Source: Escherichia coli
GTDB taxonomy: Bacteria > Pseudomonadota > Gammaproteobacteria > Enterobacterales > Enterobacteriaceae
NCBI RefSeq assembly: GCF_030384885.1
Contig: NZ_CP128613.1
Length of the DNA stretch: 64,000 bases
Reading direction: 5' to 3' (one strand)
The position numbers were made by a program, and so were the translations under genes. This document shows, piece by piece, positions 7,053-15,726 of the stretch (position 1 is the stretch's first letter; every line of letters begins with the position of its first letter). The notes under the pieces are model-generated. The model saw nothing but the letters and a program-made list of their open reading frames with translations. It was not told the origin of the DNA and ran no database searches.

Positions 7053-7974
7053 TGTGCAGCCGCCACGCTAATTGTTCGAAATAACGTTGCTGATCTTGCC
7101 GTGCTTTCAGTGCCTCTTCCAGTGAACACTGGACAAAATGAATCGGCTGACCGAGCGGAATTTGCGCCAGATGGTACATATCAGCCTCAATGATACAGGC
7201 AATACGCGGATAACCACCGGTGGTCTGTGCGTCGTTCATCAATACAATCGGCTGCCCGTTATGCGGCACCTGCACCACGCCCGGCAACAAACCATGAGAT
7301 AACAGTTCGCGATCGGTGGTGCGTTTTAAGATTTGCCCCTGTAGGCGATAGCCCATCCGGTTACTTTGCGGGCTAAGCTGCCAGGGCGAACGCCAGAATG
7401 CATCCTGCGAGGCGCGATCGAACTCATGATATTCCGGCCCCGGCAAGGCGCGAATGCGGTTGCCCCACAGCAGCTGTTTAACGCCCTGCGCTTCCATAAA
7501 ATCACGCTTCGATTTACCCATCGGGAGTCGGTCACCATCCTTCAGTAAACGGCCTTCCAGCCCACCAATCCCCACTTTGAGATCGGTACTGCATGACCCC
7601 ATTACCGGCGGAACATCAATACCACCCGCGACCGCCAGATAACTGCGCATCCCGTGCTGCGGGCGTTTAAGCGTTAAACGCTGGCCTGCTTTCATCGGCA
7701 ATCGCCAGCCAGTCCAGACGGCATTATCATCCAGCCGCGCTTCGCAACCTGCCCCCGTCAGGGCAAACCAACCATCAGTTTCGAACTCTACCGTTAACTG
7801 ACCGAGCGTTATCTCCAGCGCGGGGGCATTGGCGTCATTACCCACCAGCAGGTTAGCAATGCGTAACGCAGGCATATCCAGTGCGCCGCAGTGGCTGATA
7901 CCCGACTGGCGAAAACCGTGACGACCGCCATCCTGCACAGTAGTATACATGCCCGCACGAATAATCTTCAGCAT
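7042..7974 (-). CDS. pxpC: 5-oxoprolinase subunit C (allophanate hydrolase subunit 2-like)
   Basis: 310-aa ORF, overlaps pxpB and pxpA; conserved operon context. Confidence 0.85.
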
Positions 7975-11290: not shown

Positions 11291-12709
11291 TTATTTCCCC
11301 TTCCTCGCCGCCTCATACGCTGCCAACGTTCGTACTCTCGCTTCTTTGTGATCGACTATCGGTTGCGGATAATCCAGCGTCACACCTGATTTATCTGCCC
11401 ACTTCCACGGTTCATGCACCGCTTTCCCTGGTACATCGCGCAGCTCCGGTAACCATCGGCGGATAAACTCACCTTCGCGATCAAATTTCTCGCCCTGGGT
11501 TGTCGGGTTAAAAATACGAAAATACGGCGCAGCATCGGTTCCGGTGGAGGCCGCCCATTGCCAGCCACCGTTATTGGCTGCCAAATCACCATCAATCAGC
11601 TGCGACATGAAATATCGCTCGCCTTCGCGCCAGTCGATCAATAAATCTTTCACCAGAAAACTGGCTGTAATCATCCGTAGCCGGTTATGCATCCAGCCAC
11701 TGCTATTAAGCTGACGCATGGCGGCATCAACAATTGGGTATCCCGTTTTGCCTTCCTGCCAGGCCTTTAAATGGGCGGGATTGCTTTGCCACTGTACGCG
11801 ATCGGTCCAGGCAATAAAGGGGCGATGCTTACACAGTGACGGGTGATACGTCATCAAATGACGGTAGAACTCGCGCCAGATCAGCTCATTAAGCCAGACG
11901 CTACCAGCCCCGCCATCCAGCGCTTGCGGCTGTTCCGCCAACAGGCGATGCAGACACTGGCGAGGCGATAACCCGCCCGTTGCCAGGCTGGCGGACAAAC
12001 GACTGGTGCCTTCCACTGCCGGAAAATCTCGTTGTTGCTCATACTCTCCGGCACCGTTCTGGCAAAACTGGCGTAATTGCGCAATCGCCGCTTTTTCTTC
12101 CACCGGGAAATGCGCAGTATCGAAAGACTGACGAGGATAATTCAGCGTAATGGATGGCGCGGGCTCTATCGATCCGCTACTACGAACTTTTGGTGCAGCG
12201 ACGCACTCCGGCCCCCCTTCTCGCAGCCGTTTCAGCCAGGCGTTTTTAAATGGCGTAAAGACTTTGTACATCTCATGATTGCCAGTCATCACCGCCCCCG
12301 GCGGCAGGATCACGCTGTCATCAAATCCTTCACACACCACGTTACGCAGCGTTCTCTCAACCTGCACATCCCGAGCCCGCTCATTCACCTCATACTGATA
12401 GTTATAAAACAGATGGGTAACACGATTTTCCGCGCACACCTGTTTAACTATTTCGACGCTGGCGGCAAAGTCATCCACTTCATGAAACAGCAAAGGAATG
12501 CCTTTTTCCGCCAGCGCGATTTGTAGCCCGTTCAGTTGTGCATTGATAAATTCAGCCTGACGCGGCGACATATTATGCGCCGCCCACTGGCGTGGTGTAG
12601 CGATATACAACGCCAGCACGCGTGCAGACGAATAGCGGCAAGCGGCCGCCAGCGCGAGATTATCATGCAGACGTAAATCCTGGCGAAACCAGACCAGATG
12701 GGTAGTCAT
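11291..12709 (-). CDS. phr: Deoxyribodipyrimidine photolyase
   Basis: 472-aa ORF, photolyase sequence (MTTHLVWFRQDLRLHDNLAL..., FAD-binding C-terminal domain); overlaps ybgA stop. Confidence 0.9.
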   Translation of the reverse strand: MTTHLVWFRQDLRLHDNLALAAACRYSSARVLALYIATPRQWAAHNMSPRQAEFINAQLNGLQIALAEKGIPLLFHEVDDFAASVEIVKQVCAENRVTHLFYNYQYEVNERARDVQVERTLRNVVCEGFDDSVILPPGAVMTGNHEMYKVFTPFKNAWLKRLREGGPECVAAPKVRSSGSIEPAPSITLNYPRQSFDTAHFPVEEKAAIAQLRQFCQNGAGEYEQQRDFPAVEGTSRLSASLATGGLSPRQCLHRLLAEQPQALDGGAGSVWLNELIWREFYRHLMTYHPSLCKHRPFIAWTDRVQWQSNPAHLKAWQEGKTGYPIVDAAMRQLNSSGWMHNRLRMITASFLVKDLLIDWREGERYFMSQLIDGDLAANNGGWQWAASTGTDAAPYFRIFNPTTQGEKFDREGEFIRRWLPELRDVPGKAVHEPWKWADKSGVTLDYPQPIVDHKEARVRTLAAYEAARKGK

Positions 12710-13215
12710 AAAACTCCTGCATGGCGCAAGTTAATCACCCGCGGCCAAAGTTCGAAATAACGCTGCTCTGAAAGCCAGGCGTCAGGATAAAGCGCCATAT
12801 AGTGTTTGATACGCATCAGCGGCGCAAGAAGCGGTTGCTCGCCACGGCGATAACTGTCGATAAGCGCCGCCAGCTGCTGGCGTTCTGTGGAATCAATATG
12901 TGGGCGAAAATATCCCTGAACGTGCATCAAAACATTGGTGTGGTCACGTCGGTTGGCGGGGTGAGAAAGCAAAACAATTACGCGTTGGCGGTACTGGTTG
13001 TAATAGTCATCCAGATTTTGCCACTGGTGAATATCAGCCACAAACGGGCCAAGTTTGCGGTATTCCGGCTGGGAATGAGCCAGAAAGACGAGTTTATAGC
13101 GGCTGTGATAATCGTTGAGCGCCCCGCGCGTTAAGCCTCGCTCTTTAAGACGGTGTAACTCATGCAAAGCAAAAATGCGGATAAGGGTGCTGTCATCAAA
13201 AAGTTGTTGATTCAT
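12706..13215 (-). CDS. ybgA: DUF1722-family protein co-transcribed with photolyase
   Basis: 169-aa ORF immediately upstream of and overlapping phr start. Confidence 0.8.
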   Translation of the reverse strand: MNQQLFDDSTLIRIFALHELHRLKERGLTRGALNDYHSRYKLVFLAHSQPEYRKLGPFVADIHQWQNLDDYYNQYRQRVIVLLSHPANRRDHTNVLMHVQGYFRPHIDSTERQQLAALIDSYRRGEQPLLAPLMRIKHYMALYPDAWLSEQRYFELWPRVINLRHAGVL

Positions 13216-13412
13216 TACTACTCCTGGGCGGTTTACAGGAGTAAGTGTAGACGGCGGTACTGAAAAAACGAAACGAATAAATGATAACAGTAAAAAAATT
13301 CAATTATTCATAATAAATTTCATGGTGGCAAGAAATAGTTTCTTTTCTTCATCGCTCATGGCAGCAACGTTTAACATGTTGTCATCAAAATTATTGATGA
13401 TATTTTTTAATT

Positions 13413-13748
13413 TCAGTAACTGCAAAGGAGAAAAATAGTCACTCCGATGAGATTACTCAATACCAGCAATAGCTCCCCATCATATAAATAGCCCACCATA
13501 AGATTAATCTCTATCATCTCAATTGCTTTTTGTACAGCAAGCGCCGGTAAGATATTCTGACGAAGCATTTTGGCAATATCATTTTCATCCAGTTCATCGG
13601 GTGTTTTATCTAATAAAGAATTATACCAGTTTATTAAACCACTTTTGAAAGCGAACGAATCATATTGCAGGTGATAAATCTGTTTTAGGGTTTCTTTATT
13701 TTTCAATTTATAGTGCCTTTGTTTGCTATAATTTTTCTGAAATAACAT
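13413..13748 (-). CDS. Hypothetical small protein with hydrophobic C-terminus (island ORF 5)
   Basis: 111-aa ORF in AT-rich island; start overlaps stop of upstream ORF (TGATG), indicating translational coupling; no family recognised. Confidence 0.45.
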   Translation of the reverse strand: MLFQKNYSKQRHYKLKNKETLKQIYHLQYDSFAFKSGLINWYNSLLDKTPDELDENDIAKMLRQNILPALAVQKAIEMIEINLMVGYLYDGELLLVLSNLIGVTIFLLCSY

Positions 13749-14215
13749 CAGCGAGTTTGCTCAGGTGCAGGGATGACCGAAATTGTCATGTATTTTTTCA
13801 GTCTGGCTTCTCGTTTCACACCTTTCGGATCTGAACCAAAAGGAAGCGTCAAGCATGGTGAGTCAACGGTTTGGATTGTCCAGAGAGAATCACCAATGAA
13901 TCTGAAATTGATGCTATCCGCTGTAACGGATAATCCCTCAAAACTTCCCGTCGCATACTCATTACCCAAACGTACGGTCTCTTTAACTCCATCGTTAACA
14001 TCGATAAGGACAATTGTCAGTGATTCCTCAAAAATAACGTCATCCGTCAGAAAAAGGATATAACGCTGGTCATTAACCTGAATTGCCGCTTCCAGTATTT
14101 GCCCTGGTACAATAATACCTGTGTTATTGCCATTAAGCACAACGTCAGACTGAGCCTGAGATAAATCAGTCGCTTTGTGAACCTTGACCAACGATATCGA
14201 ATTAACCTGTTGCAT
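13748..14215 (-). CDS. Hypothetical protein (island ORF 4)
   Basis: ORF track gives 13748..14308 from a GTG; I prefer ATG at 14215 (MQQVNSISLV..., 155 aa) because the upstream part is better explained by a separate out-of-frame glycine-zipper ORF ending 2 nt before this ATG. Confidence 0.45.
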   Translation of the reverse strand: MQQVNSISLVKVHKATDLSQAQSDVVLNGNNTGIIVPGQILEAAIQVNDQRYILFLTDDVIFEESLTIVLIDVNDGVKETVRLGNEYATGSFEGLSVTADSINFRFIGDSLWTIQTVDSPCLTLPFGSDPKGVKREARLKKYMTISVIPAPEQTR

Positions 14216-14217
14216 AA

Positions 14218-14358
14218 TCAATTCCACAAGCGCCCCATTTCCCATGCGGCAAGTGCACCGCCGACAAAGCCGCCAATAAGTACGCAAACAGGTGCTCCTG
14301 GACCACACATCAATCCGGTCAACGCACCGCCTGCGACAGCACCGGCAATAATATTCAT
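14218..14358 (-). CDS. 46-aa double glycine-zipper transmembrane micropeptide (island ORF 3)
   Basis: My own translation of the minus strand: MNIIAGAVAGGALTGLMCGPGAPVCVLIGGFVGGALAAWEMGRLWN, stop TGA 2 nt before the next start; two GxxxG-type glycine zippers; not in ORF track (below length cutoff). Confidence 0.4.
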   Translation of the reverse strand: MNIIAGAVAGGALTGLMCGPGAPVCVLIGGFVGGALAAWEMGRLWN

Positions 14359-14541
14359 CCGGGTACGACTGCCAGTGGTTTTAACAGATTTACGCTCACC
14401 GTTACGTATCCTGCCACCACTCAGGTTGCAGACGCGGCAGTCACAGCCTTGACGGTGTTGAAACTAAAGTTCAGGTGATAGTCTGATGTTCATAGTTTGA
14501 GCATTATCCCCTGACAGAATCAAATCAAGCAGTGTCAATGA

Positions 14542-14799
14542 TCACGTGTATATATCATTTAAAGCATTATCAAGCCAATCTTCCATGTTTTTAATTTTAG
14601 CCCGCGCATATAAATCATTCATAACATCCTCATAACTCTGTCCATCATTGACCATACAATTAGCTGTATGAGGCAGAACATGTATAAAATCAGACAATAT
14701 AAAACAAGCCTTTGAATTTCCAGAGTTAGCTGCAATTCTGATATCAATCAATCCTCTGGCAATCAATTTAAGAATAACATCTTGCATTTTAATTTCCAT
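14542..14799 (-). CDS. Hypothetical small cytoplasmic protein, immunity-protein-like (island ORF 2)
   Basis: 85-aa ORF in AT-rich island, co-oriented with neighbours; no family recognised. Confidence 0.45.
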   Translation of the reverse strand: MEIKMQDVILKLIARGLIDIRIAANSGNSKACFILSDFIHVLPHTANCMVNDGQSYEDVMNDLYARAKIKNMEDWLDNALNDIYT

Positions 14800-14881
14800 A
14801 TCATCCAGTTAAATTTCAGTAGTAAATCGTCTATCAAAAAAAGATGAAATTAACATTCATAAATTTATTACAATATGAAAA

Positions 14882-15235
14882 TCAAAAATATACATCATCA
14901 GCTTCTACCGAAAACTCCATGGCTCCTAAGGCACCTAAATCAATACTAAATATAGTATCACTTTCCTTAGCACTCCCAACATAGATAAAATAGCCTAAAT
15001 CTCCGTCTTGACCTATCAAAAAATAGTCAGGTTCCACTTGTTGAATATCATATGTTTCATTTCTTTCAATAAGATCAGAATAGTTATATAAATATAATGT
15101 TTCGTGCTTCTTATTAGTTATTTCATAGGTCTCACTATCTTTAATTTCTTCTATCAAAAAACGTTTATACACTGGAGGAAACTTGATTGACATGTCAAAT
15201 TCAATTTTATTTATATATTCTATAATTTTATTCAT
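14882..15235 (-). CDS. SUKH/SMI1-KNR4-like immunity-type protein (island ORF 1)
   Basis: 117-aa ORF; FPPVYKRFLIEE ... YFLIGQDGDLGYFIYVG resembles the SMI1/KNR4 (SUKH-1) pattern (aromatic/Pro N-terminal motif plus GxDGxGxxxY) seen in polymorphic-toxin immunity proteins; assignment by eye only. Confidence 0.5.
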   Translation of the reverse strand: MNKIIEYINKIEFDMSIKFPPVYKRFLIEEIKDSETYEITNKKHETLYLYNYSDLIERNETYDIQQVEPDYFLIGQDGDLGYFIYVGSAKESDTIFSIDLGALGAMEFSVEADDVYF

Positions 15236-15469
15236 GTTAAGAATACCTGAAAGATTATTTATTGATTATCTTGATGAATATATCTTCACTTTTTATTTTC
15301 ATTTACTCATCGCGGAAATACACATTGCCTTGTAGACAAGCGCTAATAATACGTTATGAACCTGACTTCCGCCAGACAATCAATCTATGAATTCATTACG
15401 CCGTAGTGTTTTAGAAAGACACTTTCTGACCAGATGGTGAACCATATACTACATCGCGCATTATAAAAA

Positions 15470-15505
15470 AACCGCCAGCGTTTCCACTAGCGGTTTTCAA
15501 TGTTT
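15470..15505. terminator. Putative bidirectional hairpin downstream of ybfA
   Basis: aaaaaaaccgccagcgtttccactagcggtttt: short GC stem flanked by A-run and T-run. Confidence 0.4.
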
Positions 15506-15519
15506 TCAAAACTCAGCAA

Positions 15520-15726
15520 TCAGTAAAAATCACCGGTTGCCTTTTCGGCCTGATCCATCCACACCGGCTTATCGCTGGTTTTCGACCAGACGCGATGCAG
15601 GTAGCTGTAAAAGCGGGCGCGGTCTTTCCAGAAAAGCATGAAAGGCAGCGCCAAAACGCCCGCTGCAACCGCATAAGTACGGCGTAAAAAGATAAGCCAT
15701 GCAGGATATTCTCTGTAGAGTTCCAT
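15520..15726 (-). CDS. ybfA: DUF2517-family small protein
   Basis: 68-aa ORF ([35 protein letters not shown]...), divergent from kdpF. Confidence 0.8.

Follow-up and report, generated by a model that had tools for sequence, protein, structure and literature searches.

A probable horizontally acquired orphan immunity-gene array with a degraded effector at the RhsC position of Escherichia coli

We examined the interval between ybgA and ybfA (positions 13216-15519) in a 64,000-nucleotide stretch of Escherichia coli DNA, hereafter the window (assembly GCF_030384885.1, contig NZ_CP128613.1), where the original prediction had placed a horizontally acquired orphan immunity or toxin-immunity cassette. 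The window sequence is 100% identical to that of E. coli 2013C-4282 (NZ_CP027579). The open reading frame (ORF) listing agreed with that prediction on five small ORFs of 117, 85, 46, 155, and 111 amino acids (aa), all running in the same direction on the minus strand and flanked by ybgA (12706-13215, minus strand) and ybfA (15520-15726, minus strand). The slot is the one occupied by RhsC in K-12, as had been claimed; the K-12 gene order there is ybfA-rhsC-ybfB-ybfO-ybfC-ybfQ-ybfL-ybfD-ybgA. The last three ORFs are tightly spaced, again as described: the TGA stop of the 46-aa ORF is followed after a 2-nt gap by the ATG of the 155-aa gene, and the stop of the 155-aa gene overlaps the downstream ATG as TGATG. 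The interval is strongly AT rich, with a GC content of 0.366 against 0.508 for the whole window and 0.50 to 0.55 for the flanking genes, but it is not uniformly so. The outer parts have a GC content of 0.30 to 0.32, and the central 805 bp (13746-14550) have one of 0.46, so that AT-rich DNA flanks a 46% GC insert in what is a mosaic five-ORF island. Consistent with the prediction, no Rhs core, integrase, or genuine transposase was found within 13216-15519. With a largest ORF of 186 aa and no rhs gene annotated by RefSeq, the interval holds neither a YD-repeat core nor an orphan Rhs C-terminal fragment, and the ORF listing and RefSeq annotation revealed no delivery gene in the island (no Rhs core, cdiA, cdiB, or type VI secretion system [T6SS] gene). 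The features are as follows.

13300..13706, minus strand: CdiI_3-family contact-dependent growth inhibition (CDI) immunity gene, frameshifted here (Pfam PF18616, PDB 5J5V chain C, intact alleles elsewhere).
13746..14550, no strand: 805-bp insert, GC content 0.46, carrying the toxin stub and the putative 155-aa immunity gene; separates the five-ORF from the three-gene allele (three-way DNA alignment, GC content).
13748..14215, minus strand: soluble all-beta 155-aa protein, putative cognate immunity protein of a glycine-zipper toxin (synteny with the toxin, ratio of nonsynonymous to synonymous substitution rates [dN/dS], AlphaFold2 [AF2] model).
14218..14403, minus strand: C-terminal stub of a helical glycine-zipper toxin domain, about the last 60 of about 230 residues (alignments to Enterobacter, Pantoea, and Kosakonia forms; profile search).
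14542..14799, minus strand: 85-aa protein, Escherichia restricted, no family assigned, with a 94-aa variant in three-gene arrays (library scans, homologue search).
14882..15235, minus strand: SUKH-1 (SMI1-KNR4) family protein of 117 aa, orphan immunity-type gene (Pfam, PDB, RefSeq names, dN/dS).
15465..15519, minus strand: conserved flank next to ybfA, containing the hairpin of the ybfA terminator and marking where the variable region ends on the right (query positions 2250-2304 match island-less genomes; hairpin and T-run visible).

Two checks proposed with the prediction, strain carriage and coding conservation across strains, could be made on complete E. coli genomes. The array is carried by 170 of the 5426 genomes, always on the chromosome and in single copy, and each inspected locus lies between ybfA and ybgA. 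Its two alleles are the following.

Five-ORF allele: order SUKH, 85 aa, toxin stub, 155 aa, CdiI_3; 13/5426 complete E. coli genomes.
Three-gene allele: order SUKH, 94 aa, CdiI_3; about 157/5426 complete E. coli genomes.

The 805-bp insert that distinguishes them is present in 13/5426 genomes, one copy each and all chromosomal, and the three copies inspected sit at ybfA-ybgA. Its junction falls in the last codons of the 85-aa gene (the 94-aa form in three-gene alleles), and E. fergusonii has the same 85-aa and 46-aa products. The nearest relatives of the 155-aa protein are from Enterobacter (81 to 83% amino-acid identity), an affinity in keeping with horizontal transfer and with the 46% GC content of the insert. 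Coding potential is conserved: the other 12 five-ORF genomes have every ORF intact, and the CdiI gene is whole in 169/170 carriers.

Next, we looked at the genes with recognizable families. The 117-aa protein matched Pfam PF09346 (SMI1_KNR4) with an i-Evalue of 1.6e-4 (residues 6-95 on model positions 5-103 of 125), matched SUKH_6 and SUKH_5 more weakly, and matched the Smi1/Knr4 structure PDB 3D5P with an E value of 1.6e-5. Some alleles of the gene bear the RefSeq label "SMI1/KNR4 family protein." These matches bear out the proposed SUKH/SMI1-KNR4 assignment. The SUKH gene, which is single copy in the 170/5426 genomes, showed a dN/dS of 0.045 relative to the M7424 allele (13 synonymous and 3 nonsynonymous changes), indicating purifying selection. 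The 111-aa ORF (13413-13748), for which the original prediction recognized no family, matched Pfam PF18616 (CdiI_3) over model positions 2-79 of 95 (E = 1.4e-17) and PDB 5J5V chain C, the CdiI of E. coli NC101, over residues 36-102 (E = 1.2e-4). It is the N-terminal part of a CdiI_3 gene read from an upstream ATG. Alignment with other strains revealed a 1-bp deletion at 13444-13445 (GGG to GG) that splits the gene into 13413-13706 and 13300-13425, with the last 40 residues out of frame in the ORF 13300-13425. The native product is 135 aa, and intact alleles are present in L002 (M7424), L003 (EC42405), L004, and L022, with PF18616 also precomputed on the L022 allele. A 101-nt probe over the deletion site had a 100% match in this assembly alone, and the extra G is present in the 169 other carriers; no other carrier shares the deletion, which may be an error of assembly or of homopolymer sequencing. 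Between five-ORF and three-gene alleles, the dN/dS of CdiI_3 was 0.043, again indicating purifying selection. The gene belongs neither to a cdiBAI operon nor to an orphan cdiA-CT/cdiI module, as no cdiA fragment is present at the locus.

The upstream neighbor of CdiI_3 is the 155-aa gene here and the 94-aa gene in three-gene alleles, and its start differs accordingly. At about 13704-13706 the start is ATG in three-gene alleles (as compared with L002) and TTG in five-ORF alleles; the latter have an in-frame ATG 42 nt upstream of the TTG, overlapping the 155-aa stop (TGATG). Because of this ATG-to-TTG change and the upstream in-frame ATG, the insert may have rewired the initiation of CdiI_3 translation.

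We then turned to the 46-aa ORF, which the original prediction had taken for a glycine-zipper membrane micropeptide. It proved to be the truncated C terminus of a toxin and not a native small gene. The stub comprises the 46-aa ORF (14218-14358) plus about 15 homologous codons upstream of its ATG; because homology runs these 15 or so codons further, the ATG is internal to a longer toxin-coding sequence rather than a native start. The window stub retains the last two glycine-rich helices around an invariant CGPGAPVCV turn. No PAAR or other T6SS trafficking domain is present in the window's own effector gene, which is reduced to about 60 C-terminal codons. In RefSeq the segment 14305-14424 (minus strand) appears as a pseudogene for a partial "IS630 family transposase," a label we rejected since the translation of the segment is the glycine-zipper toxin tail. 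The 46-aa ORF, which covers 14305-14358 of the stretch so labeled, had no match in NCBIfam, and in other assemblies this DNA is annotated as encoding a hypothetical protein of 46 aa (WP_157943798); the IS630 label is probably a propagated misannotation. When the window was compared with L003 (EC42405), 6 substitutions (3 nonsynonymous and 3 synonymous) fell within about 50 nt of the stub (14290-14340), and outside that segment the 805-bp insert was nearly identical. The cluster suggests either a recombination patch or relaxed constraint.

A word-indexed search with the stub returned homologues that were all <=156 aa. At three metagenomic loci and in Kosakonia and Pantoea, a homologous helical N-terminal part is encoded by an ORF upstream, and the two parts joined give about 240 aa. 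An exhaustive search with a profile made from these reconstructions yielded 1147 relatives at E<=1e-3, many of them intact and 230 to 530 aa long. In extended family members, the domain of about 230 aa is usually C terminal. The 414-aa protein P0224 consists of a PAAR_motif (E = 1.7e-17), a Ser/Thr/Pro-rich linker, and the toxin domain (E = 5.8e-86), and members of its cluster carry the Joint Genome Institute (JGI) name "Zn-binding protein involved in type VI secretion." Other extended members have PG_binding_1-like N termini, and one 1360-aa protein has a C-terminal Endonuclea_NS_2. The AF2 model of an intact family member (predicted local distance difference test score [pLDDT] 92) has eight helices and matched nothing specifically in the PDB. 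Neither Pfam nor NCBIfam has a model for the family, and PHROGs matches to the toxin were confined to its glycine-rich hydrophobic part. We considered whether the stub could have come from the end of a very large Rhs or CdiA protein and rejected this, as intact relatives are mostly 230 to 530 aa and no Rhs or CdiA domain was found by Pfam in the 15 N-terminally extended members that were scanned. In the 1360-aa protein (P0279) the glycine-zipper domain is N terminal and the Endonuclea_NS_2 nuclease C terminal, and several proteins of about 340 aa also carry the glycine-zipper domain N terminally. Because the domain is sometimes N terminal to a nuclease, a role in membrane translocation is hinted at, and the domain may act as a membrane-translocation module beside, or instead of, its role as a toxin; the glycine zipper of Tde1 is a comparable case (PMC10240207).

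Every toxin copy examined closely in enterobacteria and several metagenomes is broken, at differing sites, and the downstream gene is intact. Kosakonia, L013, and L015 have a +1 shift, Pantoea and L016 have in-frame stops, and the toxin gene of Enterobacter ludwigii is cut off beside ssrA. A programmed frameshift was rejected, as the breaks differ in position and kind and are thus independent lesions. The broken copies include Kosakonia L011 (6703-7426), Pantoea L014 (7758-8465), and Enterobacter L005 (7702-7998), and among their lesions is a +1 shift in an A-run. In E. ludwigii (L005-L007, 7270-8468) the stub and immunity cassette directly follows the transfer-messenger RNA gene ssrA, and in Kosakonia (L011) it lies within an integrase/AlpA/RadC mobile element; the cassette evidently travels from one integration hotspot to another. 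At L013, a distant toxin relative is followed not by a member of the 155-aa family but by a Hint/intein-like ORF (CFPEG...HNFFV; 7425-7946), which looks like a further orphan polymorphic-toxin fragment.

The gene directly after the stub encodes 155 aa counted from its ATG, or 186 aa from an upstream GTG. Its protein had no match in Pfam (even at E<=10, DUF1795 included), NCBIfam, PADLOC, PHROGs, or the PDB, which upholds the original prediction that it belongs to no recognized family. We found 124 sequence homologues (Enterobacter, Cronobacter, Pseudescherichia, Kosakonia, and others), and the predicted structure had 141 relatives in AFDB50 (E<=0.001) across Proteobacteria; the 50 listed were almost all named "Uncharacterized protein." The AF2 model (pLDDT 85.8) is all beta, with generic propeller-blade similarity only, and no signal peptide or transmembrane segment was found in the sequence. 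In E. coli, Enterobacter, Kosakonia, Pantoea, and L016, and at the PAAR loci L019-L021 and L024-L027, the gene that directly follows the toxin or what is left of it encodes a member of this family. The gene that begins 10 nt past the end of the intact PAAR toxin P0224 encodes a homologue of the 155-aa protein (hhalign probability 99.85%, E = 1.4e-30), and from this adjacency we take the 155-aa protein to be, most likely, the cognate immunity to the glycine-zipper toxin. More distant toxins (L013 and L015) are followed by different genes, as expected for polymorphic pairs. Truncation or frameshift of the toxin in Enterobacter, Kosakonia, Pantoea, and E. coli has left the 155-aa gene intact, and in Cronobacter that gene stands alone, without toxin or stub. 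Its dN/dS relative to the Enterobacter and Cronobacter copies was about 0.16, so that it too is under purifying selection.

The 85-aa protein likewise fits the claim that no family is recognizable, with no match in Pfam, NCBIfam, PADLOC, PHROGs, or the PDB. More generally, NCBIfam, PADLOC, and PHROGs gave no useful lead on the window proteins. The homologues of the 85-aa protein number 29, and the named ones are solely from E. coli and E. fergusonii. One metagenomic homologue at 50% identity keeps the conserved motif pattern and adjoins a CPCC-type Cys-rich ORF, which we take to be another common member of immunity arrays. The 85-aa protein is put forward as an immunity protein through guilt by association. 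At the edge of the variable region, the three-gene allele of L002 (M7424) has an extra 240-bp element just past the ybfA terminator (alignment columns 55-294) that is absent from the window; its core (CACCCCAGTCACTTACTTATGTAAGCTCCTGGGGATT) is, we presume, like the enterobacterial repetitive intergenic consensus (ERIC).

Taken together, these results point to an orphan immunity-gene array, horizontally acquired and with a degraded effector, at the RhsC position, a reading to which we assign a probability of about three in four. The ybfA-ybgA site is a hotspot, which in K-12 holds the RhsC element and here would hold a compact array drawn from at least three polymorphic-toxin systems. Its parts would be the SUKH-1 protein, the Escherichia-specific 85-aa protein, a T6SS effector-immunity cassette whose toxin has been cut to its last 60 or so codons and whose 155-aa immunity gene is intact, and a CdiI_3 gene that is apparently inactivated here by the private deletion, or by a sequencing error. 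The array would serve as a passive shield: its products are presumably expressed, and each would bind and neutralize the matching toxin domain of a competitor, protecting the cell from toxins arriving through T6SS (PAAR or Rhs), CDI, or similar systems, and the cell would have no weapon of its own at this locus. The immunity interpretation of the original prediction is supported by the SUKH-1 protein, by the CdiI_3 match, and by the adjacency of the 155-aa family to a PAAR-fused toxin.

Several observations weigh against this reading. The CdiI_3 gene is broken in this very window, and Pfam support for the SUKH assignment is modest (E = 1.6e-4). The dN/dS of the 85-aa gene was 0.47, calculated from 18 changes only, and the genomic contexts inspected for this protein did not connect it to any toxin. 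We found no cognate toxin for the SUKH, 85-aa, or CdiI_3 gene, and in complete E. coli genomes these genes were seen solely at the ybfA-ybgA locus. Counts from the promoter and terminator scan equaled the expectation from shuffled sequence. The immunity role proposed for the 155-aa protein rests on synteny, and a soluble protein would be unusual as immunity to a membrane-inserting toxin. Lastly, the low dN/dS values could partly reflect constraint that predates the orphan state.

In one alternative, the island is inert wreckage, left as a decaying 3' end after an ancestral polymorphic-toxin locus, of the Rhs or another kind, lost its delivery gene, and its ORFs, now functionless, persist by chance or hitch-hiking. 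The toxin is down to a stub, the CdiI_3 gene is frameshifted in this strain, the DNA is AT rich in the way of usually silenced DNA, promoter signal is not above chance, and the 85-aa gene has a dN/dS of 0.47. We nevertheless consider wreckage unlikely given the dN/dS of 0.04 to 0.16 in three genes and the intact ORFs of the other carriers. The 155-aa gene, moreover, has stayed intact across several genera while the toxin decayed independently, the mark of selection acting only on the immunity gene.

An addiction module, in which translation from the internal ATG would still yield a membrane-active toxin, the 46-aa glycine-zipper hairpin, with the coupled 155-aa protein as its antidote, so that the pair stabilizes the island as a toxin-antitoxin system does, is very unlikely. 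The 46-aa ORF is open in 13/13 E. coli genomes and in E. fergusonii, its stop lies only 2 nt before the 155-aa start, and the invariant turn and both glycine-rich helices are kept. However, the internal ATG is not conserved (Ile or Asn in relatives) and has no visible Shine-Dalgarno sequence upstream, about 170 of the roughly 230 toxin residues are gone, and remnants in other genera are cut at differing places, as decay predicts. Cronobacter, furthermore, has the 155-aa gene without the stub, and the changes between the window and EC42405 (3 nonsynonymous, 3 synonymous) cluster in the stub.

Hardly credible is a third alternative, in which the 155-aa protein would serve the toxin's hydrophobic helices as an Eag/DUF1795-like effector chaperone or adaptor, or would form with the toxin an anti-phage pair of JukA-like sensor and effector: an all-beta, soluble protein of about 150 aa partnered with a hydrophobic PAAR effector would suit a chaperone, but the protein lacks a DUF1795 domain, and its gene lies downstream of the effector rather than upstream and survives without it, which fits immunity; likewise, the distant toxin relative P0173 matched PADLOC JukA (E = 2.4e-4, collinear position), but this single borderline match was not reproduced in the other 12/13 toxin-family members, and the 240-aa full-length reconstruction has neither Cbp3 nor DUF3944 in Pfam, the Cbp3-like chaperone domain and DUF3944 being what defines JukA (bioRxiv 10.1101/2022.09.17.508391). 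A JukA/YaaW-like defense sensor was rejected on these grounds.

The orphan immunity array that we favor is of a kind already known, orphan immunity genes and poly-immunity clusters having been described in Rhs, CDI, and T6SS biology (PMC9796082; bioRxiv 10.64898/2026.07.13.738213). Like Rhs/CDI orphan modules and SUKH arrays, it consists of tandem co-oriented small immunity-family genes without a delivery gene at an Rhs hotspot, and like known orphan modules it has a 5'-truncated toxin stub before an intact immunity gene, a foreign composition, and variation between strains. It differs in that the window lacks any rhs or cdiA homology, even a core or PxxxxDPxGL fragment, in that one cassette comes from a PAAR-type T6SS effector family, and in that two of the four gene families are unnamed. 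In comparison with the SUKH-1 superfamily (PF09346; 3D5P), the match covers nearly the whole 117 aa and the size and immunity-gene setting are typical; no toxin gene adjoins the SUKH gene, either upstream in the window or at the inspected loci among the 170 carriers, and the statistical support is modest, as noted above. The CdiI of E. coli NC101 (5J5V), whose complex with toxin and EF-Tu has been described, is the immunity protein to the EF-Tu-dependent tRNase CdiA-CT (PMC5737660). The window CdiI_3 belongs to the same family (PF18616), has no cdiBAI nearby, and is frameshifted; because it is only a distant relative of CdiI-NC101, its cognate toxin probably differs from the NC101 toxin.

The parent toxin resembles the membrane-depolarizing glycine-zipper toxins of T6SS, type VII secretion systems, and CDI, such as Tse5-CT, Ssp6, Tke5, Tme, TelE, and the CDI ionophores (PMC11630599, PMC10434224, PMC6889166, PMC12909789), in being all helical, in having at its C terminus a hydrophobic hairpin with many GxxxG-type repeats, and in being PAAR carried in at least one member. 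By analogy with these, a pore-forming or depolarizing activity is a natural guess. The toxins named above are functional analogues; homology to solved structures was not detected. Unlike them, the parent toxin family has no Pfam or NCBIfam model, and its putative immunity partner is a soluble beta protein. Tse5 and VasX use membrane immunity proteins. The CDI ionophores do so as well (PMC11630599).

The less ordinary part of the locus is therefore the large, unnamed, PAAR-linked family of helical glycine-zipper toxins with its soluble beta immunity protein. The effector/immunity family has no name in Pfam, NCBIfam, or the source records, and limited literature searches brought up no description of it. 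We tentatively suggest, as something short of an even chance, that the stub and the 155-aa gene mark an undescribed and widespread T6SS effector-immunity family, in which a PAAR-deliverable all-helical toxin of about 230 aa with a glycine-zipper hairpin around a CGPGAPVC turn would be neutralized by a soluble, cytoplasmic, propeller-blade-like beta protein. Because the immunity gene is kept while the examined toxin copies are broken (some E. coli, Enterobacter, Cronobacter, Pantoea, and Kosakonia), enterobacteria may be under continuing exposure to the toxin from other taxa. If the 155-aa protein does neutralize a membrane-inserting toxin from the cytoplasm, this would be mechanistically unusual.

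These results correct an annotation, an "IS630 transposase" being a toxin stub, and place three "hypothetical proteins" in context. They also give a handle on an unnamed T6SS effector/immunity family whose immunity gene has been retained across Enterobacterales and whose toxin has repeatedly decayed. Under the array reading, the locus would be a clean natural example, at a classic Rhs hotspot, of a weapon lost and its shields left behind. Orphan immunity arrays decide which neighbors a cell can survive and thereby shape strain-level competition in the gut.

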